A DNA stretch of 64,000 bases from an uncultured Candidatus Rokubacteria bacterium (GCA_963826115.1 CAWGVS010000012.1:320001-384000), one strand, 5' to 3'. Shown: positions 20,976 to 51,914, numbered from the stretch's first letter. Translations and numbers: made by a program. Notes: generated from the sequence alone by a model not told the origin.

Positions 20976-21029
20976 GGCGCGGGACTTTGGATCCCGTATT
21001 CGGAGGTTCGAATCCTCCCGCCCCAACCA
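20955..21029 (+). tRNA. tRNA-Gln(TTG)
   Basis: TGGGGCG/CGCCCCA acceptor, anticodon loop CTTTGGA, GGTTCGAATCC, CCA end. Confidence 0.97.
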
Positions 21030-29801: not shown

Positions 29802-29877
29802 GGGCCCATAGCTCAATTGGCAGAGCCGCCGGCTCATAACCGGTCTGGTCCTGGTTCGAGTCCGGGTGGGCCCACCA
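29802..29877 (+). tRNA. tRNA with CAT anticodon, probably tRNA-Ile2 (lysidine)
   Basis: GGGCCCA/TGGGCCC acceptor, CTCATAA loop, CCA end; position after rpoD is typical of ileX. Confidence 0.93.
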
Positions 29878-32322: not shown

Positions 32323-32723
<401 letters not shown>

Positions 32724-32901
32724 TTTTCTTGTAACGACTCACAGTTACGATGCACCACCTTACAGCGGCGATCGTGAGGGACAGAACGCCCCCGCACGAA
32801 AGCGCGTACCATCAAGAACGCGTGGGGTGCCGACCAGGACCCGCCCTTTTGCATACGGATCGCCCGGCCTCGGCGCTGGCAGGGACGGGCGAGGTGACCC
32901 A

Positions 32902-33891
32902 GTGATTGACCGCCGCGCCGTGGTTGCAGGCCTTGCCCTAGGGACCCTGATGGCGCCCGGCGCTGCCCGTACCCAGCCCGCGCGCAAGATCTACCGCATC
33001 GGGATCCTCGGCAATTTCGAGGTGTCTGACGCGGCCGGGCCCCAGCCACGGAACCCTTCCACCAGCGCGTTCCTGCGCGGCTTGCGTGAGCTCGGTTACG
33101 TGTACGGCGAGCATTTCGTGACCGAGCCTCGCGGGAGCGGGGGCAATCCCTCGCGCTTCGCCGGCCTCGCCGCCGAGTTGGTCCGTCTGCAGGTAGACGT
33201 GATCGTTTCGGGCCCCGCGCTCCCTGCGCTGAAGCAGGCCACCTCGACGATCCCCATCGTCATGGCGGCGGCCGGCGACCCAGTGGGCTCGGGGTATATC
33301 CACAGCCTCGGACATCCGGGCAGGAACTTCACGGGGTTGAGCCTTCAGTCGGTAGAGACGACCGCGAAGCGTCTCGAGGTGGTCAAGCAGCTCGTCCCAG
33401 GTGTCGCGCCCGTGGCGTTCATCTGGGAGCCGAGCAGCTTCTTGTACTGGCAGGCGGCCGAAGCCGCCGCCCAGGGGCGGGGGTGGAAGCTCGTGTCGCT
33501 CGAGATTCGAGACGCTGGCGCGATCGAGGAAGCATTCAAGGCGGCCACTGACGCCCGTGCGGGCACGCTCGTCGTGAGTGGCGCTGGGGTCCTCTTCCCC
33601 CAAGCCCGGCGAGTCGCGGAGCTCGCCGCCAAGCACCAGCTCCCTGCCATGTATGAGCTCCGGGCGTATGTCGAGGCCGGGGGCCTGATCTCCTATGGCC
33701 CCGACATCATCGACATTTGGCGCCGCGCGGCCGGCTATGTAGACAAGATAATAAGGGGCGCCAGGCCTGCCGACCTGCCGGTCGAGCAGCCGACAAAGTT
33801 CGAACTGCTGATAAACCTGAAGGCGGCGAAAGCGCTCGGCCTCACGATCCCGCCCTCGGTGCTGGCGCGGGCGGACGAGGTCATCCAGTAG
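32902..33891 (+). CDS. Orphan ABC transporter substrate-binding protein (ABC_sub_bind type)
   Basis: RR signal-like start, ELVRLQVDVI, TIPIVM, GLISYG, PADLPVEQPTKFEL. Confidence 0.9.
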   Translation: MIDRRAVVAGLALGTLMAPGAARTQPARKIYRIGILGNFEVSDAAGPQPRNPSTSAFLRGLRELGYVYGEHFVTEPRGSGGNPSRFAGLAAELVRLQVDVIVSGPALPALKQATSTIPIVMAAAGDPVGSGYIHSLGHPGRNFTGLSLQSVETTAKRLEVVKQLVPGVAPVAFIWEPSSFLYWQAAEAAAQGRGWKLVSLEIRDAGAIEEAFKAATDARAGTLVVSGAGVLFPQARRVAELAAKHQLPAMYELRAYVEAGGLISYGPDIIDIWRRAAGYVDKIIRGARPADLPVEQPTKFELLINLKAAKALGLTIPPSVLARADEVIQ

Positions 33892-34862
33892 TGGACCGGC
33901 GAGTCTTTCTCGGCACGGTTAGCCTTAGCTTCTTCGTCGCGCCGCTCGTCCCAGACGCGCAGCCGACGGGAAGGAATCCCCGCATCGGCATCCTTCGCCC
34001 TGGCTCGCCGCCCGATCCCCTTCTTGACGCGTTCCGGCAGGGCCTTCGCGAGCTCGGCTACGAAGAGGGGCGCAACATCAGCATCGAATACCGATGGGCG
34101 GAGGGACGGGACGAACGGCTCCCGGGCCTGGCCGCCGACCTTGTTCGCCTCAAGGTGGACGTCATTGTCGCGGGCGCAGGGGCCGTGGAGGCGGCCAAGC
34201 ACGCCACCACCACGATTCCCATCGTCATGCCGGTCTCCGGCGACCCCGTGAGGGCCGGCCTCGTCGCGAGCCTCGCGCGTCCCGGTGGAAACATCACGGG
34301 GTTGACGTCTCTCTCTGGCGAGTTGCCCGGCAAGTGGATGGAACTCCTGAAGGAGATCCTCCCTCGGGTCTCTCTTCTCGCCGTCCTCTGGGATCCCGCG
34401 AGCGATCCGAGCCAAGTGAAAACCTCGGAGATCGCGGCTCGGTCTCTGGGCGTGCGCCTTCACGTGCTGAAGGTGGGTCGCGGAGGCGACTTCGAGCCCG
34501 CGTTGGCCGACGCGAGGAACCATGACGCGGGGGCGCTCATCGTCTTGGGCTCGCCATTCTTCTATGTGCACAGAACCCGCCTCGTCGAACTCGCGGCCAA
34601 GCGGCGGCTGCCGACAATCTATGCTCAGCGGGAGTTCGTCGTGGGTTCCGGCGGCCTCATGTCCTATGGAACCGACTTCCATCATCAGTTCCGGCGGGCC
34701 GCCACCTACGTAGACAAGATCCTGAAGGGCGCCAAGCCCGCGGACCTGCCAGTGGAGCAGCCCACGAAGTTCGAGATGGTGATCAACCTGAAGACCGCGA
34801 AGGCGCTCGGCCTCACGATCCCGCCCTCGGTGCTGGCGCGGGCGGATGAGGTGATCCAATGA
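33891..34862 (+). CDS. Orphan ABC transporter substrate-binding protein, copy 2
   Basis: Same family; SLARPGGNITG, PADLPVEQPTKFEMVINLKTA; GTG overlaps the previous stop. Confidence 0.9.
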   Translation: MDRRVFLGTVSLSFFVAPLVPDAQPTGRNPRIGILRPGSPPDPLLDAFRQGLRELGYEEGRNISIEYRWAEGRDERLPGLAADLVRLKVDVIVAGAGAVEAAKHATTTIPIVMPVSGDPVRAGLVASLARPGGNITGLTSLSGELPGKWMELLKEILPRVSLLAVLWDPASDPSQVKTSEIAARSLGVRLHVLKVGRGGDFEPALADARNHDAGALIVLGSPFFYVHRTRLVELAAKRRLPTIYAQREFVVGSGGLMSYGTDFHHQFRRAATYVDKILKGAKPADLPVEQPTKFEMVINLKTAKALGLTIPPSVLARADEVIQ

Positions 34863-35140
34863 TAGGCCGGCGAGCCTGGCTGGCCGGCTCCCTCGGCCTG
34901 TTCGCTGCGGCACCCCGCGTCCAAGCGCAGACGGGTAACATCTACCGGATCGGGTATCTGACGGTCAACCCGGTGAACGCGCAGAACTCGTCCTCGAACC
35001 CCGGACGATTCCTCCGAGGGCTGCGTGAGCTCGGTTACATTGAGGGTCGCGACATCGTGGTCGAATACCGCAATGCTGGCGGCCGCCCCGAGCAACTCTT
35101 CGACCGGGCGTCGGAGCTCGTTCGGCTCAACGTCGATGCG
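34859..35140 (+). pseudogene. Truncated third ABC substrate-binding protein gene
   Basis: MIGRR...GLRELGYIEGRDIVVEYR...ELVRLNVD, then unrelated sequence. Confidence 0.8.
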
Positions 35141-35333
35141 CTGCCTGGGCCGACGGCTCCGTCCATCGCGCCGCTCATTCTAGCCAGGTCCCGCCCTCCG
35201 GCGCCAGGGCCGCCGAGCCTGATGGCCAGAGGCATGCACAGGCGGAAAGGCCGGCGCTCCGATCCCAGTTTCAGGGCATCCGATGCGAGTCGCCCGGAGA
35301 CCCGGCGACGCTGGCGGACGAGCCTCGGGCGGG

Positions 35334-36088
35334 TCAGCCGTCGCTCCGCTCGGTCTGGAGCCGAGGTCCGCCAGCTCCGCGGGCCGCACGTGAGGACGTG
35401 CGCGTGGTGGAGCAGGCGGTCGAGCAAGGCGGCGACGGCGGCGGTGTCGCCGAGGAGCTTGCCCCAGTCCTCGACGGGACGGTTCGAGGTGAGGAGCGTG
35501 CGACGCGCGTTCGTAGCGGCGCATGATGATCTCGAGGAGGTCCTCGGCGGCGGTCTGGGGCAGCTTCCGCATCCCGAGGTCGTCGATGATGAGCAGCGGC
35601 ACCGTGGTGACGTGGGTCGAGGTAGGCCTTGCGGGTGCCGTCGAGCTGGGCGTCGGCGAGCTCGTCGAGGAGGACGTGGGCCTCGCGGTAGAGGACGCGG
35701 TGGCCCTGCTGGATGACGGCGAGGCCGATCGCCTGGGCGAGGTGGCTCTTGCCGGTGCCGGGGCGGCCGAGGAAGAGCGCGTCCTCGCGCTGGGCGATGA
35801 AGCGGCCGGTGGCGAGCTCGAAGACGAGGGCCCGGTTCATCTTCTTGTTGAAGTCGAAGTCGAAGGTGTCGAGGGTCTTGCCGGCGTCGCGGAAGCCGGC
35901 GTGCTTGAGGCGGCGCTCGAGCAGCCGATCCTGGCGCTGGAGCAGCTCGTCCTGGACGAGGGTGGAGAGGAAGTCGATCGGGGCCAGCTTCTCGGCCTGG
36001 GCCTGGAGGAGCCGGGCTTCGAGCCCGGCGGCCATGCCCGGAGCAGCGGAGCTGGCGCAGGGCGCGCTGCAGTTCGACGAGCGTTCAT
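35334..36088 (-). pseudogene. istB: IS21 helper ATPase IstB (frameshifted)
   Basis: KTLDTFDFDFN, GRPGTGKSHLA, LLIIDDLG, LDRLLHHA spread over several frames. Confidence 0.87.
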
Positions 36089-37686
36089 GAGGGGACCTCC
36101 TGGGTCTTCTGCGCGATCACGGTCGCGGTAGTGGGTGAGCTCGCGGATGAGCGGATCGACCTGGCGCAGCGTGAGCGGCGCCGCGGGGCGGCGCTCGAGG
36201 TAGCGGCGGACGAAGCGGTAGGTGGCGACGCCGCACTCCAGGGCCGCCGCGCAGGCGTCGTCGACGACGGCGGGGCCGTACTTCTTGACGAGGGCGAGGA
36301 CGCCGAGGATCCGTCGGACGCCGGGCTGCGCCGTCGCGGCGGTGGATCGCGTCGCACAGCGCGCCCGACGCCGGGCGCCGGCGCGAGTGGCGCGCGGCGA
36401 GCAGCTGCGACCGTGGTCGGCGGCGTCCGCGGCGGCTGATCCGTCGCTGGGATGGCATAGCGGCCCCGGCCGCTGGCGCACGATGCTCGCGGAGCAGCTG
36501 GCCGGTGCGCGGATCGAGCAGCCGCACCTGGCGGCCGTCCCACTGGACGGCGACCTCGCGGCCGATCCAGCCGGGCGGGGCGGCGTAGTAGGCGCCGTCG
36601 ACTTCGACGCAGCCGTCGAGGTGCACCGTGCGGGTGCCGTACCGGTAGTAGCGGAAGGGCTCGACGGGCAGCGGCAGCAGGTGCGGCCGCTCCTCGGCGA
36701 ACATGGCGGCGACCTGGCGCTTGGTGGTGCCGTGGATGCGCGTGTCGGCCCAGCGGGTCTCCCAGCGATCGAGGTAGCGCCTGGGCCTCCTCCAAGCGTC
36801 TCGAAGCGCAGGCCCTTGAGCGGCGTGGCCTGGGCGTGGCCGACGGCCGACTCGACCTTGCCCTTGCGATCGGGATCGCGGACGCGACACGGCAGGGCGA
36901 CGACGCCGTAGTGCGCGAGCACGTCGCGGTAGAGCGGGTTCAGCGCCGGATCGTAGACGTCCGGCGTGAGCACGCCCTCGCGTGAGGTTGTCGAGGACGA
37001 CGACCCGGACCGCCCCGCCGAGCCGGCGGAACGCTCTCCTCGTGCAGCTCGGCCCAGCGCCGGGCGCTCGACTCGAAGGTCAGCAGCCGGACGCTCTTAC
37101 GGCTGTAGCCCAGGGTGAAGACGAACAGCCGCGTGCGGCGGTACTTCCCGGTGCGTCGGATGCCGCACCATCGGCCCCGTCGCCGTAGTCGACCTGGCCT
37201 TCCTCGCCCGGGCGCGGTCACGATGACGGGATGCGCCTCGGGGGCCGCTGAGCCGCGGAGCTTGCGCGACGAAGCGCCGCACGCTGGCGTACCGCCCGGG
37301 GAAGCCGTGGTCGATCGACGAGGTCCTGCCAGATCGCCATGGCGTTGCGGCCCCGGGCGAGGGCCGGCTCGATCAGCTCCCGGTAGGGCTCGCAGGCGCT
37401 GGCCGTCGGGCGCCCGGCTCGGCGCGGCGGGCGGCCAGGGCGGCAGCGGGTTGCCAGACTGGCCGGACGGGCCGCCGAAGTCGGTGGACACCTGACTGGC
37501 CGGATTTGGCGCCGGCGGCCGGCGCCGGACGCGGCGAGCGCGGACCGGGATCCCGGCCGCCTTCAGGTACGCACTGGCCGTCTCGCGCCGCACGCCCGTC
37601 GCCGCTTCGATGCGGCGGAGCGGCCAGCCGAGCCGGCCCAGCGCCAGGACTTGCTGCTGCTTGTCGTCGCCCAAGATGTTCGCCAT
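36085..37686 (-). pseudogene. istA: IS21 transposase IstA (multiple frameshifts)
   Basis: HTH N-terminus, LFVFTLGYSRK, PDRKGKVE, RIHGTTKRQV in different frames. Confidence 0.87.
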
Positions 37687-37858
37687 GTCGGCGGGGAGAC
37701 CACAGTCCCCTCGCCGCCGTCAACGTCTTGGGGCGCCGCTACCTCACTGGCCGGTTTTCAGGTGTCCACGACTGGCCGGTTTTGGGTGTCCACCGAGGTT
37801 TCTTTGTTTCCGAGGGCTTAGGCGGCAGTTCATAACCCTTGGACGCTCCTATCTCCAC

Positions 37859-39097
37859 TCACGCTCTCGCGGCGATGTGCTCGGCCAGATGGGTGGCGTC
37901 CTCCTCGAGGCCGTATAAGAAGGACGACTTCCGCTTGTACAGCCACTGGAGGCCAAGGAAGGAGAGGCCGGGGATCGCGGTGATACCCCGGCGGTGCGCG
38001 GGCTCGCCTCGTTCGTCGAAGATCGGCAAGTCGATCCACCGGAAGTCGGACCGGAATCCGGTCGCCCAGATGACGGCGCCGATCCCGGCCCCACGGAGAT
38101 CCAGCTCTCGAATCCCCCCTGAGGCAATCGGTGGGGACAGTTCGGGATCGCGCGGCGGCTCCTGGGGTGCATCGATCCCCGTCTTCCGGATGTACTCGTC
38201 GAAGACCTTCAGGAGACCCGTGAGCGCCTCGTCCCCGTTCGCCAGGCTCTCCTCGAGATCTGCCGCCAGGAAGAGTTTCCCGTCCCCGTAGCCCTGCAGG
38301 TGGCCGAGCAGGACGACTCCCTCGCGGGCGTACCGGCGAAGGTCGATGTCGTGGCCCCCGTTCACGCCGGTCCACAGAAGACCAGGCCTCCGCCTGGCCT
38401 CGGGAGACGGCAGACTATCGACGGTCGTCTCCATCACTGCCGGGTATCCCCAGGTCGAACTGTCACGCCCCCGATAGCGGCGCACCATCCGACGGTGGCG
38501 CCCCACGGACAGATACACGCGACGGCCGACCGCCTGGAGATCCTCAACGATCTGACAACCGGAGGTCGCGGATCCCACGACGAGGACGGAGCCGGGCGGG
38601 AGTTGGGCCGGGTTCGTATATCGGTTGGATGCAACCTGGACGACCTCGGGCGGGAATGACGCCGCGAACGGTGGGATGACCGGCTCCTGGAAGGGGCCGG
38701 TCGCGACGACGACGTTCAGGGCCTCGAGCGTGGCGTCGTCGCTTTCGACCACGAGCCGCTCCGTTCCCGGTTTCGCCCGCAGCGCCGTGACGCGCACGCC
38801 GCAGCGGAGCGGCGCCCGGATGGCCGACGCGTAGCCATTAAGGAACCGCACGACCTCGTCGCGCGTGGCGAAGGCGTCTGGATCTCCCGGGAAGGCGTGG
38901 CCCGGCATGGGCGCCGTCCAGTTTGGCGCGAGGAGCGTCAGGGAGTCCCAGCGCTCACTCCGCCAGCGCTCGGCGACGCGTCCGCGCTCCAGCACGACGT
39001 GTTCGCGGCCGAGCTGGCCAAGGTAGTAGCTCAACGCGAGCCCTGCCTGGCCCCCGCCGACTATGACGGTCTCAATGGACTCACGATGCGCGCTCAC
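37859..39097 (-). CDS. Flavin-dependent oxidoreductase (FMO-like)
   Basis: VIVGGGQAGL, RWDSL, VVVATG, VVGSATSG, IWATGF. Confidence 0.88.
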   Translation of the reverse strand: MSAHRESIETVIVGGGQAGLALSYYLGQLGREHVVLERGRVAERWRSERWDSLTLLAPNWTAPMPGHAFPGDPDAFATRDEVVRFLNGYASAIRAPLRCGVRVTALRAKPGTERLVVESDDATLEALNVVVATGPFQEPVIPPFAASFPPEVVQVASNRYTNPAQLPPGSVLVVGSATSGCQIVEDLQAVGRRVYLSVGRHRRMVRRYRGRDSSTWGYPAVMETTVDSLPSPEARRRPGLLWTGVNGGHDIDLRRYAREGVVLLGHLQGYGDGKLFLAADLEESLANGDEALTGLLKVFDEYIRKTGIDAPQEPPRDPELSPPIASGGIRELDLRGAGIGAVIWATGFRSDFRWIDLPIFDERGEPAHRRGITAIPGLSFLGLQWLYKRKSSFLYGLEEDATHLAEHIAARA

Positions 39098-39227
39098 CGG
39101 ATCTTCCGCGTCCGATCCCCCACGATAGAGGTGACTACTCCCAGTGACTCCGCAATCGGAGCACCCCGGCGCCGGTCTGGGCGTCGACGACCTTCGTGTA
39201 GGCCGCCATCGTCCTAGGTCAGCGCCT

Positions 39228-40012
39228 TCAGCCTTCGAGCACGACCTCGTCGCTGATGTGGATGTCGCCCGCGCCTTCCGCGCTAAACCAACGGCCAGCG
39301 TCGGTTTCTCCTGACCAAACGCGTGGGTCAGCGTCGTCAAGATCGACCGGTCACGCTGCCCCGTCTCTGGGTTCGCGTGCGGCGCGAGGCAGCGGCCGAT
39401 GGACGTATGCACACGGAACCGCATCGAGCCAACGCGGACCGTCTTGCCGATCCAGCCTTGCTCCTCAAACGGCTCGAGACCGTCAACCGAAACGTTGGAG
39501 CGAAATCTCAACTCGCTGAGATTTGGATCGTCCAACGCCTTGCCCAACGCCCGCACACTGGCCCGGCCGTGAATCGTGACGTAACCGTCCGGCCGGTCCT
39601 GATAGCGCGGTGTGCGTCCATCGCCGACCAAACGGAGGGGCAGGCGCTCCGGGTGGCCCTTCAGGCCGCTCTCCGGCAAGTCCTTGGCGAAGTTGGCGAC
39701 GGCACCGCAGATCCGCCCACGTCCCGCTGCGTCGAGCCCGTCTTCGATCAACCGCTCACCGTCCAGGCTGATCTCTAGCCGCTGAGTTGCCTCGTCGTAG
39801 CTGAGGCGCAGGCGGGCCAGACCGGGCGTATGCATCAACACCAGCATGCCGTGCTTGCGACTCCAGGCCTCGTCCGGCTCCGGTGTATTGGCGAAGCGAA
39901 ATCCCAGCACCCGGTCACCCGCGATCCGTCCGTCGACGACAGTCAGCGACTCGCGGCGCTCTGGTGTGAAGCCCTTAACGGGGTAGCGGTACAGCGCAGC
40001 GACGGTAGCCAT
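39228..40012 (-). CDS. MOSC-domain protein with a frameshift near 39280
   Basis: LYRYPVKG, GDR, RFRSN, RC; natural end EGAGDIHISDEVVLEG-stop is in another frame. Confidence 0.8.
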
Positions 40013-40256
40013 GCGCCGAGTCTAACCTCAGTCAAGCCGGCACGGGCGCTCCGTCTGAGCGCGCTCCGGTATCGCGTCTGCGGCACCGCCGCGCTTCCAG
40101 ATCACTCGGCCCAAGGGGTAGTCCGTCTACCGGAACTCGAGCAGGGTGCCGATCAGGTTATGGGCGCTCCAGATGGTTCTAGGCTCGACATCTCCCGCCC
40201 GGACGCCCTGCGAGATAAGGCAGATTCGGCGAGTAGTTAGCCGGCTCCGTGACGAT

Positions 40257-40290
40257 ACCCGGCTTACAGGCTCCCTCTGGCGCTTTTCTT
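40257..40290 (+). repeat. att-like direct repeat copy 2 of the rnpB 3' end
   Basis: 34/34 identity to 32697-32730. Confidence 0.9.
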
Positions 40291-40494
40291 TACTGGACGG
40301 ACCGTTACGACGCAGCGGCTTACAGGATCACAAGGGCGTACGAAAGTCCTGCACAAGCGCGTGGTACACGCCGTGGGTTCGCCACGCCCCTAGGCTCCGG
40401 CGGAGCGGTCGACAGCGCCTGGGCCGCAGCCTCCAGCGTGGGAATCGCACGTCGCATCTCCGGTTCTCGCGGGCGCCCGCGGCGCCGCGTGCAT

Positions 40495-41313
40495 CTACGG
40501 GACCGATTTCCGCCCCCAGACCTGGAGGAAGAGCGAGGAGACCACGAGCGTGCCCGGGTCGTCCAGGTGACTCCGCAGCGCGGCGGTCAGGTCGCTCAGC
40601 TCGGATTCGCTCGCGAGCCCGTCCTCGACGATTCGCGCACGCGCGTTCTCGACGAAGTCGAGGACGAGACGGCGCCGGTCGTGACCAGGCGGATAGACGT
40701 GCACCAGCGGCACCACTTCGATTTGCGTGACACCCGCCGCTCGCAACATGCGCGGCGCTCGGAGACCGAGGTTGCGGTCGATGCCCTGCCGCGCCGACGC
40801 CGACGCGAGTATCTCGACCAGCCGGTCCTGCGCCGGGTGGGGCGGATCCACGCGCTGGGTGGAGGCGACGGCCTCGTGCAAGGCCACCACCCCGCCAGGC
40901 CGGGTGAGCCGCGCCATCTCGTCGACGATCTGCTAGGGCTCCGGCACGTTCACGAGCACCAGGCGCGCCGTGGCGAGATCGAAGCTGTCGACCGGAAGAC
41001 CGGTCGCGCGGCCATCGCCGCACCACACCTCGACGTTCGCGAGTCCGTTCGCCGCGAGAAATCGGCGCGCCGAGTCGACCTGCTCCGCGTTGCGCTCGAT
41101 ACCCGTGACTCGGCCGGCCGCCCCGACGCGCTCGGCCAGTAATCCGAGACAGCCCTCGGGCCCGCAGCCGATCTCGACCACACGCCAGCCGGCCGTCACG
41201 CCGATCCGGTCGAACAGCGCCGCCGACTCGGCGGCAAGCTCCCGCGCCTGCCGCTCGAGCCGCTCCTGCTCGGCGCGCCGGTAGCCCAGGAAGTACGGAT
41301 CGGGCTCGCTCAT
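40495..41313 (-). pseudogene. Class I SAM-dependent methyltransferase with in-frame TAG at 40933-40935
   Basis: VVEIGCGPEG, FDLATARLVL; the frame continues after the stop (QIVDEMARLTRPGG). Confidence 0.8.
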
Positions 41314-41485
41314 CGAGCGTGGCCCCGGCTCAGAGCTTCCCCTCGCCCATGAGCTCGGCCGGATCGCGCAGCCCGCCCTTGCCGAGATAGCCGCCCACGC
41401 TCGCGATCGCGCTTCACGCAACCGCAGCGGCGAACTGCTCGAACAGGTCGCCCGGCAACGAGCGCTCGAGGCGCCCGGTGAAAGG

Positions 41486-41734
41486 TTACTGGTAGATGTT
41501 CAACGCCTTGAGGATGACGATCAGCACCACGGCGCCGAGAATGCTGACGACCCAGGCGCCTTTGGAACCCACCGCCACGATCCCAAGCCGTCCCGCCAGC
41601 CAGAAGCCGAGCACGGAGCCGATGATCCCGACGATGATGTTGGCGATGACGCCCATCTGGGCGCCGGTCTTCATGACGAGGCTGGCCAGCCATCCGATCA
41701 CTCCTCCGATAATCAGGGTCACGATGAGGCCCAT
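41486..41734 (-). CDS. GlsB/YeaQ/YmgE stress-response membrane protein
   Basis: IIGGVIGWLAS...NIIVGIIGS..G; GGAGGGAGG RBS. Confidence 0.92.
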   Translation of the reverse strand: MGLIVTLIIGGVIGWLASLVMKTGAQMGVIANIIVGIIGSVLGFWLAGRLGIVAVGSKGAWVVSILGAVVLIVILKALNIYQ

Positions 41735-42691
41735 AGTCCCTCCCTCCGGAGACCGGGTCGTTCGAACGAGGAGTTGACGGTCAATCCTAGCTCAATTCCG
41801 CCCGGTTGCGTGGCCCGCCCGCGCGTCAGCTCGATCAGCGCCGTCACTTCGGCCACCCCGGACATCCACACGCCGTTCGCTTCCGTTCCCGCGCACGACC
41901 TATTCCCGGAACCGTTACCGGCCCGGCGCGAGAGTGAGCGCAACGTGAGAGGCAAGCGGTTCGCCTCTCGCGTGACCAACGCGAGACTTCTCCGGCAGCC
42001 CTTGCGAGAAGCATGCGCCGGTCAGTAGGCCAGGAGGCGCAAGGCCGCGTCACACATGCGGTCCACGGCCTGTCGCCGTGACTCGGACTTTCACGACCGC
42101 GAGCCGCGGGCCGATCAATCGAGCATCCATGGGAGCCGCAGGACGGCGCTGGATCCGTGGCGTAGGCATGGAATCGGTGCGGAAGGCCATCGGGCACGTT
42201 GGCCGCCGAGCTGAGGAGGGCCAGCGCATCTCTCACCCCACGGGATAGCTCCTCCTCGAAGCTCCGGGGCCCGTGCCCCTCACGTCCGATCCCCTCAGCT
42301 CCACTAACCTAGGCAACGGCACAGCCGGACCGACTGCAAGGTCGCCTGCCGTGTTGCCCTTTGATCTGGATCCCCTCCGAGAGGAACCGCCCGAAGGGGC
42401 CAGTCTGCATCTCGCGGGCACGCCTCCCTTTTGTCGACCCCTATCGCCGGGCCGTTGGGCGGGGTAGCGTCGGTGTCATACGGTGGTGGCTCGCGGAGCG
42501 CCACCCGGAACGGGAACCGGGGGCTGGAGGGTGTGTTTCTATTTCCTGGATCCTCCGCGGAGGTCCGTTCGAATGAGACCATCATGGGTACGAGGCCGCC
42601 CAGCGTCTCGGTCGCAACGACCGCCCCGCATGACACACGGCCCGGCGACACGGTCCTGGCAGGTGCGTCGACATTGGGCGTTGCTGGAGGC

Positions 42692-44110
42692 ATGAACGCA
42701 CCGAGGCGGTGGATCTCGGCCCGGGCCGGCCCTCTCACCATGGCCGGGCTCCTCCTCCTGTTCACGATCGCATGCGGTCGCTGGATGATCGTCCTCCACG
42801 AGACAGGGCACGCGGAGACGAACCATGACATCGCGTCGATCAGTCAGGCCGTCTGGAACACGTCCCAGGGCCGGCTCGGCCACGCGACCATCCTCTACGA
42901 GGGCGTCCGGGATCACCTGGAACCCGTACTCCTCGTCTACGCCCTGAACTACACGGTCGGCGGCACGGTCCACACGCTGCTCTACCTCCACGCGCTAGCG
43001 ATTGGCCTCGGCTCACTGCCGTTTTATGCATTCGGCCGCCAGCGCGGCGTCTCCGCAATGGACGCGACGCTCATGGCGACGGGTTACTTGCTCCTGCCCC
43101 CCCTGCATCGACTCATCGAGAAGGACTACTTGCGCACAGACGTGCTGCTCTTCCCGGTACTGGCGCTCCTGGCCTACGCGGTCACCGTGCGGCGCGCCCG
43201 CCTCGCGCTTGCCGCGGCCGCGCTGGCGCTATGTGTGCGGGAGTCTGGGGCGCTGGCGGTCGTAGGTCTCGGACTCCACCGGCTCTGGGTCGAACGGCGC
43301 GTCCCGTCTGGCCTGACGCTGATCGCGGTGGGCGCCCTCTGGATTCCGCTCGTGAACTACGTACTGCTACCGTGGCTTCTCGGTCACCCTACGCTGCACG
43401 CCGTCCAGTTGCGCTCGCCGACCTTGATCGCCGACCAGCTCGCGGCGCTCTGGAGGGAGCGGTGGCCCCTCGGGGTGCTGGCGGCGACCGTCCTGCTACT
43501 GCTCCGACGGCGCTGGGCGGCGCTGCTCGCCCTGGCGCCGCTGCTTGCCCTGCTCTTCTACCGGACGGTCCTCCGCTACTCCGCCACACTGTTCTCGATT
43601 GTGTGGATGAGCATCGTCGACGAGATCGCGCACTGGTCACGCCCGGGGCTGCGGCGAGCCGCACTCATCGCAGCCTCCTGCATCTTCGCGCTCGCCAACG
43701 TGGCCCTCGGCTCGTGGCGCCTCCCCTCGGAGGCAGGAATACGGGATGTCCGTCCGCTGCTTGCTCGGGTACCGCAGGCCGCCAGTGTCTGCGCCGAGTC
43801 GCGCGTGCTCGGCCACCTCTCCTTGCGAGAGCGACTCTACCAGTTCAACCGCGAGCACTACTTTCCGAAGGCGGCTCAGGCCTGCCTGGGCGCCGAGTAC
43901 TTCCTGCTGAATCGGAACGGACGAGACACGTTCTTCGCGCACCGGCTACATGAGGACCGCGCCCAGGCCTTCCGCGACGTGGAAGCTCTCGGTGTCGAAA
44001 CCGTGGCCGAGTCCGGAACCTGGGTGCTCTGGCGTCGTCGCACCCTCGAGGAGCCCCGCGCCTCAGGGGCGCCCCGGGGGACGCGGTTGGGAGGGGGCGC
44101 GGACGACTAG
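42692..44110 (+). CDS. DUF2079-like polytopic membrane protein (putative GT-C glycosyltransferase)
   Basis: D....Q..WNT.QG, DHLEP, RE motif, many TM helices; GGAGG RBS. Confidence 0.7.
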   Translation: MNAPRRWISARAGPLTMAGLLLLFTIACGRWMIVLHETGHAETNHDIASISQAVWNTSQGRLGHATILYEGVRDHLEPVLLVYALNYTVGGTVHTLLYLHALAIGLGSLPFYAFGRQRGVSAMDATLMATGYLLLPPLHRLIEKDYLRTDVLLFPVLALLAYAVTVRRARLALAAAALALCVRESGALAVVGLGLHRLWVERRVPSGLTLIAVGALWIPLVNYVLLPWLLGHPTLHAVQLRSPTLIADQLAALWRERWPLGVLAATVLLLLRRRWAALLALAPLLALLFYRTVLRYSATLFSIVWMSIVDEIAHWSRPGLRRAALIAASCIFALANVALGSWRLPSEAGIRDVRPLLARVPQAASVCAESRVLGHLSLRERLYQFNREHYFPKAAQACLGAEYFLLNRNGRDTFFAHRLHEDRAQAFRDVEALGVETVAESGTWVLWRRRTLEEPRASGAPRGTRLGGGADD

Positions 44111-44394
44111 CTCTCGCGCAGGTCGCGAATTCGCACTCCTGCCTGTTCGGTTGGCTCCCCAACACGCCGCTGGAAGTGCCAGCGAAGGCTGGGCCGCGAC
44201 TTCCCCGCCGAGCTCGAGGACGGTTTGCGGATCGTCGAGAACGCCCCGGTCGGCGTACCCTCGCGTTCGGTCGTCGACCAGGCCCTGACGGAAGACGGTG
44301 CCCGGAGGGAATCGGGCCTTATGAGGGGCCCCGAGGTCGACAAGCCCGTCGACGGACATCCAGGTCCTACACTCTTTTTCGACCGGCCGGCGAT

Positions 44395-44428
44395 ACCCGG
44401 CTTACAGGCTCCCCTGGCGCTCTTCCTT
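44395..44428 (+). repeat. att-like direct repeat copy 3 of the rnpB 3' end (degenerate)
   Basis: ACCCGGCTTACAGGCTCCC-CTGGCGCTCTTCCTT. Confidence 0.85.
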
Positions 44429-44724
44429 CGATGCCGCGTACTTCCACGGCATCGGCTTGCAGCAGCGGCGGGCAATCCCTCGTCCGCGCGCCGGCGTATG
44501 CTGGCGACGGAGGACGCGGCCCATGCGACAGACGAAGATCGTCGTCACGCGCTACGGCGGACCGGAGGTGATCACTGTCGCCGAGCAAGAATGCCCTGCG
44601 CCCATGCCTGGCGAGGTCCGGGTGAAGGTGCTGGCCGCGGGCGTGAGCTTGCCTGACGTACTGGCGCGCGAGGGCGTCCATCCGGAAACCCCGCGCGTGC
44701 CCTATACGCCCGGTTGGGACACTA

Positions 44725-45863
44725 GTGTCCCGTCACCGAAGTAGAGTTAATATAAGCCATGGCATGCTCCAGGAGGATCGCTATGGCCAATCGCGTGCGT
44801 CCCATCCGCGTGACCGAGGCCGACCGGCATGAACTGGAGCGGCTGCAGCGCGCGTCGTCGATGCGGGCGGGCGTCAGCCGTCGCGCCCGCGCGGTGCTCC
44901 TGATGGCGCACGGACTGTCCGGTGTCGAGGTCGCCACCCGGACGGGGTACACGGTGGTCCAGGTGAGCCGGCTGCGCCGGCGCTTCGCGGAGGGTGGGGT
45001 GGCCGGGTTGCACGAGCGGCCGCGGTCGGGGCGGCCCCCCACGCTCACCGCGCGACAGCGCGCCCGCGTCGTCGCCCTCACCCTGCGCGCGCCGGAGCCC
45101 GGGATGACCCACTGGACCACGCGCGACCTGGCCCGACGCACGGGGGTCTCGCACACGACCGTGCATCGGATCTGGAAGGCCCATGCGCTCCAGCCCCATC
45201 GGCTGACCACGTTCAAGTTCACGACCGATCCCCAGGCCGCGGAGAAGATCGAAGACGTCATCGGGCTGTATCTGCACCCGCCGACGAACGCGATCGTGCT
45301 GTGTCTCGATGAGAAGACGCAGATTCAGGCGTTGAGCCGCACGCAGCCGCTGCTCCCCCTGCGGCCGGGGCTGCCGGCCCGGCAGACCCACGACTACCGA
45401 CGCAACGGGTTGACCAGCCTGTATGCGGCGTTGGACGTGGCCAGCGGACGGGTGCTGGGGGAATGCCGGCCCCGCCACACCGGGGCCGACTTCCTGGCCT
45501 TCCTGAAACGGGTCGCCCACCGGTACCGCGGGCGCGAGTTGCATGTCGTGATGGACAATTCCTCGACGCACTCGACCCCGGCGGTGCAGGCGTGGCTCAC
45601 GGCGCATCCCACCGTGCACCTGCCCTTCACGCCCACGGGCGCCTCGTGGCTGAACATGATCGAGGCGTGGTTCGGGATCCTGACCCGGAAGTCGGTCCGC
45701 CGGGGCTCGTTCGACACCGTCCGCGCCCTGATCCAGCACATCGAGCAGTACATCGCGCACTGGAATGATCACCCAACGCCCTTCATCTGGACGAAGACCC
45801 CGGCCGACATCATCGCCAAGGCCGTCCGGCGCGGTCGTTAACATGACTTCGCGGACGGAACAC
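44725..45863 (+). mobile_element. IS630-family insertion sequence
   Basis: Terminal IRs gtgtcccgtcaccgaagt / acttcgcggacggaacac with flanking TA (CTAG context). Confidence 0.92.
44783..45841 (+). CDS. IS630 transposase
   Basis: RSGRPP, HWTTR, LDEKTQIQAL, MDNSSTH, SWLNMIE (DDE). Confidence 0.95.
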   Translation: MANRVRPIRVTEADRHELERLQRASSMRAGVSRRARAVLLMAHGLSGVEVATRTGYTVVQVSRLRRRFAEGGVAGLHERPRSGRPPTLTARQRARVVALTLRAPEPGMTHWTTRDLARRTGVSHTTVHRIWKAHALQPHRLTTFKFTTDPQAAEKIEDVIGLYLHPPTNAIVLCLDEKTQIQALSRTQPLLPLRPGLPARQTHDYRRNGLTSLYAALDVASGRVLGECRPRHTGADFLAFLKRVAHRYRGRELHVVMDNSSTHSTPAVQAWLTAHPTVHLPFTPTGASWLNMIEAWFGILTRKSVRRGSFDTVRALIQHIEQYIAHWNDHPTPFIWTKTPADIIAKAVRRGR

Positions 45864-45939
45864 TAGTCGGCATCGTGGATCAGATCGGCGAAGGCGTCTC
45901 CGGTTTGGAACTCGGCCAGACGGTTGCGGCCATGCCGCG

Positions 45940-46066
45940 CCGCCGCCAATGCCGCCACGGTCACCGAGAGCCCGATCAGCAGCAGCTGCTGACGGCCCGT
46001 GACCCGCCAGACCGCCCGGTAGAGGTCGAACAGAGTGTCGGCCCGGTACCGCTCCTCGGCACTCAC
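45940..46066 (-). pseudogene. N-terminal fragment of an ABC transporter TM protein
   Basis: LYRAVWRVTGRQQLLLIGLSVTVAALAAA, then an abrupt junction into the antisense MDR fragment. Confidence 0.5.
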
Positions 46067-46345
46067 GTCCGGGCGGCGCCGGAATCGCTGGCGTTCACGC
46101 CCGACGGGGATCCAGGCTCGGTGCTCGGTCGTGACGGCGCCAAGGAGTCGGGAGCGTGTTGGCTCTCCATCACGGTGGCCCTGGCCACGCGATAGACCAC
46201 TACAGTCCTTTCATGGGGCAGGGACCGCCTCATAGTGCCACGGCGCGTCGCTGAAGTGCCCCGGCTCGGAGGGTCACCCCACGGAGGCGGGCCCCGCGCG
46301 ACGAGCCCGGGCATAGGTCCCCTGTCGTCTCGGAGGCGGCGCGGC

Positions 46346-47035
46346 TCAGGAGCTCGGCCCAGGCACCCGTCGCTTTCGCCGCTCAAGCGCGGCGTGCGCC
46401 GCGAACAGGTACCCGCGGCTCCGCTCGGCGTCGAGGCCATACGACAGGCTGCCGGGGCGGACGCGGCGGAGCGCCAGCACCTCCTCGATCATCGCGTGGC
46501 GGTGGCCGAGGTCACGGCTCCGGGCCAGCCAGTCCACCATCTCGCCTATCCGGCCCGGCTGGTCCACCACGTCCCCGATCTCGTACGCGGCCGCGTACCG
46601 GAACATGAGTGTCGTCCGCGTCCACAGGCGCCGGACCGGTCCGCCGCGGGCCGGATCGAGCGCCGCCCCGTCGGTGAAGAGCCGCGCGAGCGTGAACACA
46701 CCGGCCAGGCCCGGGTCTTCCGCGAAGCGGGCCAGCTGGCGGGCGGCCTTCGGGGGGAGCCAGAGGTCGTCGGCGTCGAGCATCGCCACGAACGGGGTCC
46801 GGACGCGGCCGAGGCCCGCCGTCGTCGCGGCCCCGGGCCCGGCGTTCGGCTGCCGGATCACGGTGATCGGTCCCGCGACGGCCGCGGCGACGGCCGCGGT
46901 CTCGTCGGTCGACCCGTCGTCGACGACGACGATCACCTCGGGGAGGAGCGTCTGGCGCAGAACGGACTCGATGGCCGGGCCGATCGTGGCCGCCGCGTTG
47001 TACGCCGGGATGACCACGGTGTACGCGCCCGTCAC
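46346..47035 (-). CDS. Glycosyltransferase family 2
   Basis: VVIPAYNA, VVDDGSTD, LDADDLW. Confidence 0.92.
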   Translation of the reverse strand: MTGAYTVVIPAYNAAATIGPAIESVLRQTLLPEVIVVVDDGSTDETAAVAAAVAGPITVIRQPNAGPGAATTAGLGRVRTPFVAMLDADDLWLPPKAARQLARFAEDPGLAGVFTLARLFTDGAALDPARGGPVRRLWTRTTLMFRYAAAYEIGDVVDQPGRIGEMVDWLARSRDLGHRHAMIEEVLALRRVRPGSLSYGLDAERSRGYLFAAHAALERRKRRVPGPSS

Positions 47036-47796
47036 TCGCCGAACTCCTCCAGCATCGCCCCCTTCTGGAGGAAGAGCTCCGCGAAGATGGGCGGCAAGCG
47101 GGCGCGGTTCCGCAGGCGGTAGCGCACGGCCCACTTGAGGCTCGCCAGCATGAACTCGCGCTGCCGCTCCTCGACGTTCAGCGTGACGTTCGCGTCGTGG
47201 CGCCGGTAGTAGGCGGCGACTCCGTCGTCCAGCACGAGCCGGCACTCGTGTTCGATGACCCGGAGCACGAAGTCGCTGTCGCACCCCTGACGGAAGCTCT
47301 CGTCGAACCGCCCGACGCGGTCGATCGCGGCCCGGCGGTACATCGCGGCCTGGAGATACGGGCCTCGGAGGCGCTTGGTCGGGCTCCCCGCGGCCGGGGC
47401 CAGCGTCGCGTCGTCGAGCTCCCTGAACATCTCCACCATCCCGTACAGGACGTCGATCGTCGGGTCGGCCTGCAGCAGGGCGTGCTGCCGCGCGATCCGC
47501 CCCGGATAGGACACGTCGTCCGCGTCGAGGAAGGTCACGCACTCGCAGTCGGCATGCAGGTGGTCGAGCCCGGTGTTGCGCGCGGCCGCGATGCCCTTGC
47601 GGGGATTCCGGAGGAGGCGGACCTCCGGGAAGTCGCGGGCGAAGGCCTCGACGATCGTCCGGGTCCCGTCGATGGACCCGTCGTCCACCACGATCACGTC
47701 GAGGTCGACGGCCTGGCGCTCGCGGACGAGCGAGCGAAGGGCCGCCTCGATGAAGCGCGCCGCGTTGAGCGCCGGCATGATGATGCTAACCGGCAC
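47032..47796 (-). CDS. Glycosyltransferase family 2
   Basis: SIIMPALNA, VVDDGSID, ARNTG, FLDADD, YRRH. Confidence 0.93.
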   Translation of the reverse strand: MPVSIIMPALNAARFIEAALRSLVRERQAVDLDVIVVDDGSIDGTRTIVEAFARDFPEVRLLRNPRKGIAAARNTGLDHLHADCECVTFLDADDVSYPGRIARQHALLQADPTIDVLYGMVEMFRELDDATLAPAAGSPTKRLRGPYLQAAMYRRAAIDRVGRFDESFRQGCDSDFVLRVIEHECRLVLDDGVAAYYRRHDANVTLNVEERQREFMLASLKWAVRYRLRNRARLPPIFAELFLQKGAMLEEFGE

Positions 47797-48877
47797 GGCT
47801 CCCCTCTCGGGCCAGGAAGGCGCCGATCGCGCCGGCGATGTCGGCCGCGTCCTCCGACAGCGTCAGGCGGAACGCGGGGAGGCGCCGCGTGAGGTCGGCC
47901 AGCAGGCGGAAGCCCTCGGCCGTGTCGCCGGGGAGCTGGAACACCCCCGACGGCGCCAGGGCCAGGGCGGCTTCCGAGGCCGTGACCCGCTCCACGGTGG
48001 TGCGGCGGGCGCGGGCGATCTCCGGGATCAGGAGCGCCGTCACCTCCATGCGCTCGACGAGCCCCTTCGGCAGATACCGCATCGCGTCGAGCTCGACCTT
48101 GCCCCGCCAGTTGACCGGGTCCGCGTCGACCGTCGCGATCGGGAGGCCCGCGCGCCGGAGCCCCTCGCGGTCCTGCTTCAGCACGGTGAAGACGGCGTGC
48201 GCCACGACGGGCGGGCCCGGGTCGACCAGCACGTAGTCGTCGCCCACGCTGTCGAGCCCGTTCACGAGTCCGGCGAGCGTCGTGGACGACTTCCCGGATC
48301 CGCTCGGGCCGGCGATCAGGGCGCCCCGTCCCTCCACCCCGAGGGTGGCCGCGTGGGTGAGGCGCAGGCCGGCCCCGGCATAGGCCCAGTGCAGGAAGAG
48401 GCGGAGCGGCGACGCGCACTCCCACGGCGCCAGGCCCAGCTCGGACGACAGCGTCTGCACGCCGATCCCGGTCGCACGGTCGTAGAACTGCCAGGCCGGC
48501 GTGTCGTGATAGTAGAAGCCCCGGAGGTTCCGGACGGCGAGAATCCGCTCGAACTGATGCGAAGAGAACGGCGTCGTCTCGTCCCACGTGGCCGGCGCCG
48601 CCCAGCCGTCCGCCGCCGCGTCCAGCGCGTAGACCTCGAGGCGCGTCGCGCCCGGGTCGTCGCGCTCACGTCTGACGAGCGTGCGCTCGCACAGCGCCGC
48701 GAGCCGAGGACTGGTGAACCAGGCCGTCACGTCGATGCGCGCCACCCGAAGGTCGCGCCGCGTCAGGCTCGCCTTCGGATAGGCGACGGCAGCATCCAGC
48801 CGGTCCCTCGCATAGGCCGGCAGGCCTAGCTCCGACACCGTGAGGGCGGGGGACCCGGACCCACCCTCCACGATCAC
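47786..48877 (-). CDS. HPr-kinase-like P-loop serine kinase
   Basis: HAA, GPSGSGKSST, GDDYV; GTG overlaps the upstream stop. Confidence 0.82.
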   Translation of the reverse strand: MIVEGGSGSPALTVSELGLPAYARDRLDAAVAYPKASLTRRDLRVARIDVTAWFTSPRLAALCERTLVRRERDDPGATRLEVYALDAAADGWAAPATWDETTPFSSHQFERILAVRNLRGFYYHDTPAWQFYDRATGIGVQTLSSELGLAPWECASPLRLFLHWAYAGAGLRLTHAATLGVEGRGALIAGPSGSGKSSTTLAGLVNGLDSVGDDYVLVDPGPPVVAHAVFTVLKQDREGLRRAGLPIATVDADPVNWRGKVELDAMRYLPKGLVERMEVTALLIPEIARARRTTVERVTASEAALALAPSGVFQLPGDTAEGFRLLADLTRRLPAFRLTLSEDAADIAGAIGAFLAREGSRAG

Positions 48878-49716
48878 GGCGTCGGTTGCAGCGTGGGCCA
48901 CCCCGCCTGCTCGTCGACGTCGTGGATGGGATCGCCGTGGATCAGCTCCGCCAGGTCGTCGAACACCTCGATCCCGGGCTCGCCGCCGGTCCAGTCCGCG
49001 GCGATCGGTCCGAGGGGCCCGGCGACGCCGCCGACGCGAGGGCGCACCAGACTGAGCTTGATGAGCCGATCGACGAACGCCGACGACACGTCCGTCAGCT
49101 CGGGACACGCTTCTCCGATGCCGAGCAGGATGGCTCCGGGGGTGTGGCCGGCCAGGAGTGCCGACCAGATCGGCGAGGCGATCCCGTGCAAGCTATAGTA
49201 GTGGCCGTTGTTCAGGTTGAGAATGACCATCTGCCCATCGAAGTCCTCGGCCACGACGTCGGGCGCGTTGATCTCATACCGAGTGGCTCGCTCGACGTCG
49301 GTCAGGACCTCGACTCGGCCGGCGCTGTCCTGAATCAGTGCCGCCAGATCCTCGAAGACCTCGATCTTGGGCTCGCCGCCAGCCCAGTCCGCGGGGACCG
49401 GCCCGGACGACCCGTCGGCGCCGTCGACACGAGGGCGCACCAGCCGGAGCTTGACGACCCGATCGATGAACGCGGCCGACGCGTTCGTCAGCTCGGAGCG
49501 CGCCGTCTCGATGCTGAGCAGGATGGCCCCCGGGGGGTGCCCCGCCAGCAGCGCCGACCAGATCCGCGGGGCGATGCCGTGGAGGCTGTAGTAGTGTCCG
49601 TTGCCCAGGTTGAGAATGACCATCTGCCCATCGAAATCCTCGGCGACCACGTCGGGCGCGTTGATCCCATAACGGGCGGACCGATCTATGCTGCTCACGA
49701 CCATATTGCGGCCCAC
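48874..49716 (-). CDS. Tandem PqqD/RRE-domain protein
   Basis: Two copies of INAPDVVAEDFDGQMVILNL.NGHYYSL.G.A..IW; GGGAGG RBS. Confidence 0.85.
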   Translation of the reverse strand: MGRNMVVSSIDRSARYGINAPDVVAEDFDGQMVILNLGNGHYYSLHGIAPRIWSALLAGHPPGAILLSIETARSELTNASAAFIDRVVKLRLVRPRVDGADGSSGPVPADWAGGEPKIEVFEDLAALIQDSAGRVEVLTDVERATRYEINAPDVVAEDFDGQMVILNLNNGHYYSLHGIASPIWSALLAGHTPGAILLGIGEACPELTDVSSAFVDRLIKLSLVRPRVGGVAGPLGPIAADWTGGEPGIEVFDDLAELIHGDPIHDVDEQAGWPTLQPTP

Positions 49717-49907
49717 GTCCTCCCTCTAAGCCCCGCATTGTATTACACTCCGGCAGCGGCCCCGCATGCGCCGGGGCCGGCCGCAGCGACGCGTCAGCGG
49801 TACAATCGATGCTCGAAGCCGATGTCGTGCGGCCTCCGCGGTCTCAGGTTGGCGCCGGCTCCCAGCGGGGCCGGTTCTCGTTGCGTCACGCCGGTCGGTG
49901 ACCGCCG

Positions 49908-51107
49908 ATGCTGATGACGGAGCTCGGGTTCTCCCCGCCCCGTCCCGACGAGGAAGCGCGAATCGTCGCCCGGGACGCCCGGGGCGAACTCCCGCTCGCC
50001 ATCCAGCAAGATCCCGTCCTCCGGATCCCGGCCGCGGTGCTCAGCGCGGATCCCCTCATCTCGTACTCCGGCAGCCGGATGAGCGCCGCGCGCCTCGGCC
50101 TGGCCGGCGTCGCAGGCCCGGCGCTGCGCGACCGGCCCGCGTGGTTCCTGCTCTCGCCCACGTGGTCGCTCGAGGAGGACGGGGCTGTCGAGATCCTCCG
50201 CGGGCTCGCCGCCCTGCATCGCCGCCAGAGCCCGCAGCACCGGCTGATCTTCGTGTGCAACACGCCCCGGGAGGTCAGCCTCCTGCAGGCCCGCGGCGAG
50301 GCGGCCTTCTTTTTCAACAAGACGGCCCTCACGGTCGAGCGGATCTTCCGGCCCCTCGACGGTGCGCCCCCGGACTTCGAGGCTATCTACAACGCGCGAC
50401 TCCTCCCGTGGAAGCGTCACGAGCTGACGCTCGAGATCCCGCGCTGCGCATTCCTCTACTATCGCGACGAGACCCAACCCAACGCGGTCGGTGACGAAGC
50501 CGCCATCCGGGCCCGGCATGCCGCCGCTCCGGGGCACGTGTTCATCAACGTCACCGGGGAGGATGGCGTGCCGGTTCGACTGTCGCCGGGGGAGGTCAAC
50601 CAGCACCTGAACCGCGCCCGAGTGGGCCTTTGCCTGTCGGAGCGGGAAGGGGCAATGTTCGCCAGCATGGAGTATCTCCTGTCGGGCCTGGCCATCGTCA
50701 CCACCCCGAGCATCGGCGGGCGGGACATCTACTACGATGCGGAGTATTGCTGGACGGTCCCGCCCGACGCCCGGTCGGTGGGCGCGGCCGTTCGGGCGCT
50801 CGTCGACCGGGCGATTCCCCGGGCGCGCGTTCGCGAGCGGACGCTCGGCCAGATCGAGACTCACCGGGCGCGCTTCCTGGGACTGATCAATGCCATCCGC
50901 GAGGAGAGCGGCGCGCCGCCGCTGCGGTCGTCGTGGCCGTTTCGCAAGCCCGTGACGATGCAGTGGCTCCCGCCCGGAGAAGCCGTGGACCGCGCGGTGC
51001 ACGGCGTGGTCGATGCCTTCGAGACCGGGGCCAGGCGCCTCGTTCAGTTGCCCAGGTGGCGCCACGCGCTACGCCGCCTGAAGCGGCGGCTGGAGGGATC
51101 CGCATGA
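49908..51107 (+). CDS. Putative glycosyltransferase (GT-B/GT4-like)
   Basis: YNAR...KRH, LSEREGAMFASMEYLLSGL (E-x7-E motif). Confidence 0.72.
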   Translation: MLMTELGFSPPRPDEEARIVARDARGELPLAIQQDPVLRIPAAVLSADPLISYSGSRMSAARLGLAGVAGPALRDRPAWFLLSPTWSLEEDGAVEILRGLAALHRRQSPQHRLIFVCNTPREVSLLQARGEAAFFFNKTALTVERIFRPLDGAPPDFEAIYNARLLPWKRHELTLEIPRCAFLYYRDETQPNAVGDEAAIRARHAAAPGHVFINVTGEDGVPVRLSPGEVNQHLNRARVGLCLSEREGAMFASMEYLLSGLAIVTTPSIGGRDIYYDAEYCWTVPPDARSVGAAVRALVDRAIPRARVRERTLGQIETHRARFLGLINAIREESGAPPLRSSWPFRKPVTMQWLPPGEAVDRAVHGVVDAFETGARRLVQLPRWRHALRRLKRRLEGSA

Positions 51108-51544: not shown

Positions 51545-51580
51545 CCGGCGACCGCGCCGGCGCGGCCATCGGGACGGCGC

Positions 51581-51898: not shown

Positions 51899-51914
51899 GC
51901 GAAGCGGGGGCGCG

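Follow-up and report, generated by a model that had tools for sequence, protein, structure and literature searches.

The DNA analysed here (the window) is a stretch of 64,000 nucleotides from an uncultured Candidatus Rokubacteria bacterium (GCA_963826115.1 CAWGVS010000012.1:320001-384000), in which rnpB, the gene for the RNA of RNase P, is followed by additional copies of its own 3' end. Our analysis makes it probable that the 3' end of rnpB is the attachment site (attB) of phage-like integrative elements in this bacterial order, and that the window holds decayed remnants of such elements. The feature is real, and joins a known mechanism to an unusual target, of which the window presents a decayed instance. 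A preliminary description of the window had proposed the sequential integration of at least two elements, of 7.5 and 4.1 kb, at the 3' end of an rnpB gene that was kept intact; the integrases of related genomes and a predicted viral contig, both described below, lend support to that proposal.

The rnpB gene is single-copy in the 6.24-Mb genome (G000) to which the window belongs. The repeat consists of the last 26 nt of rnpB and a T-rich tail, CTTTTCTT, together 34 nt (Table 1). Copy 2 begins 7560 nt after copy 1 and matched the 34-mer with 0 mismatches, as did none of 100 shuffles. Copy 3, a further 4138 nt away, matched the first 19 nt of the 34-mer (0.04 matches expected by chance), and its edit distance from copy 1 was 3 over positions 2-34 (one deletion, one substitution and one insertion). 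Both the exact and the degenerate repeat reported in the preliminary description were thus confirmed, as was its observation that the two downstream copies share a left flank that differs from that of rnpB (...gacgat/ACCC at copy 2 and ...ggcgat/ACCC at copy 3, compared with ...cacagg/ACCC in rnpB). Genome-wide, the 34-mer was present in these three copies only, all on the plus strand of one contig; with no copies outside the rnpB locus, it is not a dispersed repeat. No fourth copy was detected in the window by an nhmmer profile built from 18 copies. Alignment pointed to one almost erased candidate within the second interval (Table 1), where homology to genomes G012, G003 and G013 stops 5 nt short of the repeat copy of those genomes.

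The same architecture was found in relatives, 25 of 30 of which gave an rnpB match. In 9 of 14 other species of the window's genus the terminal 31-34 nt of rnpB recurred: five extra copies over 26 kb in G013, two in G014, two on one contig in G010, and one each in G012 and G003, with those of G002, G004, G008 and G009 located on other contigs. Wherever the contig was common, the extra copies lay on the rnpB strand and 3' of the gene, and the longest array, that of G013, comprised six copies. Across the order, 22 of 151 genomes had at least two matches to CCCGGCTTACAGGCNNNCTCTGG when up to two mismatches were allowed, and the control, the reversed pattern, gave five hits in total. Eleven of the 151 carried their copies on the same contig and strand, at spacings of 0.8-11 kb and with at most five strict matches (G013). 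This sample includes the unpublished genomes G037, G055 and G083, which gave one match each and on which no result rests. Array content and copy number differed in every species of the comparison.

The copies were increasingly degenerate with distance from rnpB. Ranked outward, their edit distances from the rnpB copy were 0 and 3 in G000, 1, 2, 4, 3 and 5 in G013, and 2 and 3 in G014; decay that grows with rank is predicted by insertion at the rnpB-proximal junction. The sequences beside the repeats were also recurrent. On the right, a hairpin-like stretch was accompanied by the word GTACAGAAC and, at 57-63 nt, by a second word similar to CGGCTTACAGG; on the left was either ...GACGAT or ...GTCCGTA. 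All three window copies, copy 3 included, had the right-hand signature. Displaced copies in relatives mostly start T/CCCGGC, and the common block therefore begins at CCCGGC, one base further right than the ACCCGGC of the preliminary description.

Tyrosine recombinases beside rnpB-end repeats, for which the preliminary description had proposed a search, were found in the relatives G035, G115, G129, L101 and L102. In G035, G115 and the metagenome loci L101 and L102, a full-length Xer-like integrase gene was convergent with rnpB, its stop codon approximately 90 nt past the repeat. G035 and G115, which share this arrangement, both belong to another family of the order, and in G035 the segment up to a 16-nt repeat, 4.6 kb distant, contains an AraC regulator gene, a YspA-type gene and an HTH_17 gene that resembles an excisionase gene. 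The G129 integrase was more distant and belonged to a second lineage, yet lay beside rnpB in the same arrangement; no far repeat of this element was found within 8 kb. In domain make-up, the rnpB-linked integrases are simple and Xer-like (PF02899 and PF00589), and they scored well under the XerC, XerD and IntI cut-offs. Across at least five independent contexts, and in both lineages, their distance from the repeat and orientation to it were constant.

In the window's own genus, the integrase survives only as 5'-truncated or frameshifted copies. G013 gave a PF00589 match (104.7 bits) on the opposite strand between rnpB and the first extra copy, in a frame of 224 aa that retains the catalytic domain (the Arg, HRFRH and the final Tyr region) and is without the SAM-like N-terminal domain. 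G002 had a frameshifted integrase copy in the corresponding place, and short C-terminal integrase fragments followed repeats in G014, in G008 and again in G013. Two species of the genus keep truncated or frameshifted copies where an intact gene would be expected, and loss of the integrase is therefore the simpler account of its absence from the window. The word GGGACAGAAC at the left end of island 1 is the counterpart of GTACAGAAC, which in relatives comes after the integrase stop codon; no integrase followed this left end (32731-32826) in the window.

We considered an SSV1-type split integrase for G013, where the frame is open through the neighbouring repeat, and rejected it: the full-length relatives are unsplit and have no core-like sequence at the corresponding position. 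The same genome encodes a small serine recombinase (PF00239, 143 bits; L036 13399-14109) whose gene begins 134 nt after the second repeat copy, where other units have the integrase end. Separately, in one genus of the other family, an Xer-like integrase gene lies directly 5' of rnpB in the same orientation, intact in G040 (L097 3131-3979 and 4069-4462) and frameshifted in G038 (L094 17-687).

In a tree of 19 rows, the integrases of G115/L102, G035/L100 and G013 formed one clade (support 98/97), joined by those of G116, L099, L089 and L087, and G129 fell in a separate clade, also with 98/97 support, with G040 and a long-branched integrase of G000. Judged by this placement, at least two integrase lineages appear to use the rnpB site, with apparent switches of target within the first. 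The integrases of G116, L087, L089 and L099, although members of the same clade, were rejected as rnpB-linked since none is beside rnpB; upstream of those of L089 and L099 is a tRNA gene. The long-branched integrase of the window's own genome (C5:1085k) was 34% identical to that of G129, and PF00589 and tblastn searches of this genome revealed no member of the first, rnpB-linked clade. Its ten PF00589 matches all lay elsewhere than between the repeat copies, and tblastn with four rnpB-linked integrases gave no match in C12:340000-380000.

An element of this kind would be expected to carry the repeat outside the chromosome, and a candidate was found in the IMG/VR contig L107, which is predicted to be viral. 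On this 19.8-kb contig, 26 nt of the rnpB end occur without the rest of the gene; approximately 90 nt to the right of this repeat, and reading towards it, is a gene (6664-7620) for a 318-aa integrase (PF02899 and PF00589) that was 40-47% identical to first-clade members compared with 25-31% to others. An HNH endonuclease (phrog_826, E 1e-47) and a ParB-like gene lie on the left side, and a PHROG without assigned function and an exonuclease (phrog_298) on the right. In its ...GACGATTGCAA preceding the repeat, the left flank resembles the right ends within the window, and the repeat itself is the variant of the other family and not that of the window's genus. With the repeat next to an integrase and apart from its target gene, L107 is a candidate for the attP arrangement expected of a free temperate element. 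Two further viral contigs, L108 and L109, were rejected as attP: they encode related integrases (39-40% identity) and have no rnpB and no rnpB-end word downstream.

We propose a model in which each element carries about 33 bp of the rnpB end (CCCGGCTTACAGGC...CTTTTCTT), with its Xer-like integrase gene some 90 nt to the right of this copy and reading towards it. Integration would restore rnpB with the copy of the element and leave the displaced copy at the far end; newcomers would insert at the rnpB-proximal junction, shifting older elements outward. The window would record at least two such insertions (islands 1 and 2; Table 1), and possibly a third past 44429, followed by loss of the integrases. 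Deletion and insertion sequence (IS) insertion would later have reshaped the islands, and the remaining segments would be cargo between att scars without their own means of moving. The repeats, in our judgement, most likely arose by site-specific integration, leaving the window with old tandem islands from which the integrase has been lost; the crossover, the sequence in which the elements arrived and the integrase losses are what we infer.

Several observations weigh against this model. The window's own islands contain no integrase or integrase fragment, and the link between the window and an integrase is therefore made by homology of the att flanks. The G035 integrase has HRFHH in place of HRFRH, with His replacing the second catalytic Arg. 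L107 could be a junction between tandem prophages, which would have the same look. Copy number varied among relatives, as the preliminary description had suggested might be seen, but none of the fetched relatives had a clean empty site, in which rnpB would lead directly into the conserved flank; G006 was considered for this role, and its downstream flank matched no other fetched locus. Nor did the junction search, which covered short Logan metagenome contigs (shares of at most 0.17; four runs at 90% likeness), find any joint fitting excision between copies 1 and 2 or a circle. The short-sided joints that it found, 34846 to 40169 (X9), 45937 backward to 40237 (X3) and 41827 to 40258 (X9), may derive from other organisms. 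Much of the array may have been inherited and not recently acquired, since the modules of island 2 are 86-94% identical between species and the backbone 78-90%. Finally, none of five one-contig islands in the other family (G110, G061, G076, G038 and G108) had a PF00589 match inside, and so frequent an absence of the integrase could be more than decay. The island of G061 held only a weak integrase fragment, and that of G058 was checked by tblastn. The other-family islands without an integrase carry ordinary cargo, for example MerB/MerR, a solute-binding protein or IS transposases.

In G108, MerB and MerR lie at the rnpB junction of a 10-kb repeat-bounded island (L095 1995-3043). In G058 the same 16 nt follow both repeats (L096 956 and 12039), and the contig ends 180 nt past the second; a tandem duplicate could explain this, as could a circular form that was folded in at assembly.

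The frequent lack of an integrase raises the alternative that the islands are passengers with working att sites, excised, moved or captured in trans by the integrase of a related phage or element that arrives beside them. Such passengers would resemble cis-mobilisable elements that grow by accretion or, in the most daring version, the cassettes of an array anchored on rnpB. We consider this unlikely, although it is the most probable of the alternatives. Copy 2 is still identical to copy 1 at all 34 positions, and each copy, the third too, keeps the left-end flank with a second core-like word approximately 57-62 nt away. Integrase-less islands are the usual state, in all five one-contig islands of the other family and in all arrays of the genus besides the truncated copies. 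Modules also change their position in the array: the stretch at 41484-42079 forms a separate unit of 0.88 kb in G013, with a repeat copy on each side. In G004, an element at least 9.7 kb long starts at a repeat (L043 2537-12194, L042 2683-12317 and L041 1-5550) and is 97-99% identical across the three contigs. Its left neighbour is rnpB in one case and another flank in a second, with 98-99% identity of the element behind these differing neighbours; the contigs are either strain variants or tandem copies. Against mobilization in trans, the window's genome has no rnpB-clade integrase, and the one at C5:1085k is only distantly similar to that of G129. Rank-dependent decay of the repeats, and truncated integrases at the expected place, fit plain decay. 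Module divergence is about equal to backbone divergence, copy 2 has no attC-like fold, several genes lie on both strands, and no excision joint was seen among the short Logan contigs.

A bolder form of this idea is that the rnpB tail is a site of cargo capture, at which att-flanked units are excised, shuffled or transported by the rnpB-specific Xer-like integrase of visiting phages, making the arrays a gene pool and not a graveyard; we hold this to be unlikely too. We are similarly sceptical of its corollary that most units never need an integrase of their own and that arrays of up to six units are a functional pool. The truncated integrases of the genus, the lack of a first-clade integrase in the genome, the old, rearranged modules and the later IS21 and IS630 insertions lead us to read the window's islands as fossils of integration.

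It is highly improbable that the copies are scars of integrase-independent recombination, for example of a duplication of part of rnpB or of exchange by illegitimate or homologous means, and that the adjacent integrases are coincidental. Such scars would agree with the absence of an integrase inside the window islands and of a clean empty site among the fetched relatives, but would not account for the constant position and orientation of the integrase in independent contexts and two lineages, or for a viral contig that has repeat and integrase without rnpB. Moreover, all one-contig copies are direct and 3' of rnpB, and the conserved left-end and right-end words beside the repeats resemble att arms. 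An assembly or binning artefact is scarcely credible: this is a metagenome-assembled genome with 5.3% estimated contamination, and its single-base discrepancies with other metagenome contigs are concentrated in the IS21 region, but unique sequence separates the three copies, which share one contig, and the same architecture recurs in independently assembled genomes.

The closest known systems are the islands at tRNA and tmRNA 3' ends of the Islander/TIGER type. As in those, a direct repeat of the target's 3' end bounds the insert, the gene is rebuilt, the integrase gene stands beside the att site (in relatives, not in the window), and tandem arrays contain older scars that are more decayed. 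The window thus has the repeat-bounded insert and intact target of a 3'-end RNA-gene island, and lacks the integrase inside. The differences are the target, rnpB, the window islands without an integrase, the simple Xer-like form of the rnpB-linked integrases (SAM_1 and catalytic domain), and the length of the arrays, with six copies in G013. TIGER/Islander sort sites into tRNA/tmRNA, coding and intergenic, and require an integrase (PMC12424338). The Islander paper likewise makes an integrase a matter of definition, and among its 3919 islands it records 4 tandems with three or more members (PMC4383910). Since island finders use tRNA and tmRNA genes and require an integrase, rnpB arrays would be missed or filed as intergenic. 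A full-text literature search did not find rnpB named as an attachment site, which may nonetheless be listed in the supplementary tables of island databases.

The preliminary description had also entertained an integron-like cargo array. Integrons share with the arrays an Xer-like recombinase (in relatives) and units separated by a repeated site. However, no integrase stands beside the window array, the repeated site simply duplicates the rnpB end in direct orientation, and the units are multigene segments of 7.5 and 4.1 kb with genes on both strands, in contrast to short, one-gene cassettes in the same orientation. On TIGR02249, the rnpB-linked integrases scored 72-91 bits against a cut-off of 265. 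Folding of the copy 2 region was no better than that of shuffles (z +1.6 and +0.4), and that of copy 3 formed only a local flank hairpin (z -1.6 and -2.3). The comparison failed on every feature tested (resident intI, attC fold and cassette form), and the integron-like reading is not supported.

Two classes of element without their own recombinase offer further parallels. Cis-mobilisable elements (CIMEs) are known from accretion at the ICESt1/ICESt3 site of Streptococcus thermophilus. Like CIMEs, the window segments have att sites of a related integrative element on either side, stand in tandem at one site and are without recombination or transfer genes; the difference is that the window's genome has no helper. 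IMEX elements use XerC/XerD at dif. They resemble the window segments in having no recombinase of their own, and the arrays in the Xer-like family of the recombinase; here the site is the rnpB end and not dif, and relatives have dedicated integrases distinct from the housekeeping Xer proteins.

An essential ribozyme gene would thus be a place where elements land repeatedly in a large phylum of uncultured soil bacteria. This adds a class of target, served by two or more lineages of Xer-like integrase and with one candidate for a phage attP. A landing site at rnpB explains a hypervariable region beside a gene often used as a phylogenetic marker, and a defined set of attP, attB and integrase is a possible recombination tool. 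The window itself offers modest biology, namely old cargo unable to move by itself.

Table 1. Coordinates of rnpB, its 3'-end repeat copies and the segments between and beyond them in the window
Feature	Position	Strand	Basis or remark
rnpB, bacterial type A RNase P RNA	32328-32722	+	Rfam RF00010, 275.9 bits, model 1-367, intact
Repeat copy 1	32697-32730	+	attL-like junction
Island 1, 7.5 kb	32731-40256		multigene; Pfam and NCBIfam
Island 1 left end	32731-32826	+	second core-like word CCTTACAGC ~62 nt from core, plus GGGACAGAAC
PF04392 solute-binding genes, two (island 1)	32827-33891 and 33717-34862	+	Pfam/NCBIfam
Broken IS21, IstB fragments in two frames (island 1)	35035-36084	-	Pfam/NCBIfam
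Broken IS21, IstA C-terminal fragment (island 1)	within 36117-37079	-	Pfam/NCBIfam
MOSC and flavin oxidoreductase fusion, 717 aa (island 1)	37859-40012	-	Pfam/NCBIfam
Repeat copy 2	40257-40290	+	34/34 identical to copy 1; junction between islands 1 (right end) and 2 (left end)
Island 2, 4.1 kb	40291-44394		genes on both strands
Core-like word CGGCTTACAGG (island 2)	40316-40326		
140-aa gene, no family assigned (island 2)	40495-40917	-	
S-adenosylmethionine (SAM) methyltransferase fragment (island 2)	40933-41421	-	
Transgly_assoc gene (island 2)	41486-41734	-	
Possible fourth repeat, almost erased (weak)	42077-42100	+	alignment only; missed by nhmmer profile
DUF2079 membrane protein (island 2)	42431-44110	+	
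Repeat copy 3, degenerate	44395-44428	+	edit distance 3
Possible third island	44429-51100		no detectable far repeat; left-end-like flank GGCTTGCAG ~57 nt from core

Island genes were chosen by their GC content at third codon positions (GC3) and then scanned against Pfam and NCBIfam. All seven had low GC3, 0.76-0.88, corresponding to the 1.7th-23rd percentile of 2338 long coding-like open reading frames (median 0.927); those of island 1 had values of 0.76-0.82 (1.7th-9th percentile). The two genes to the left of rnpB had GC3 values of 0.93-0.94, and tRNA-Gln (20955-21029) and tRNA-Met (29802-29877) genes were noted upstream of rnpB. The preliminary description had remarked on the lack of a recognizable recombinase, which holds for tyrosine and other site-specific recombinases; island 1 does, however, carry the wreck of a transposase, the broken IS21.

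Island 2 is probably composite. Its parts at 40257-41377 and 41484-42079 recur in G013, G012 and G003, at an identity close to backbone values, and these modules are therefore probably older than the species. A counterpart of island 1 was absent from G012, which does hold the island-2 module.

The right-hand signature of copy 3 suggests a third unit beyond 44429. Copy 3 is followed by an N-terminal fragment of an alcohol dehydrogenase gene (44457-44744), cut by an IS630 element, and then by further genes; the far boundary of such a unit would lie where sequence common to relatives restarts, at approximately 51100-51900. The IS630 element (approximately 44721-45865, transposase 44759-45841) splits the alcohol dehydrogenase gene, and contigs from two metagenome runs that join 44720 to 45866 represent its empty site. 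A second IS630 copy, of 84% identity, is present on contig C10.

Within the broken IS21 (35035-37079), the window differs from abundant metagenome contigs at several single bases, and some of the IS21 frameshifts could be assembly errors instead of decay. The PF04392 genes of island 1 (33600-34900) have more than 20 paralogues genome-wide, of 65-88% identity, several of which cluster at C5:1075000-1080000 near integrase fragments.

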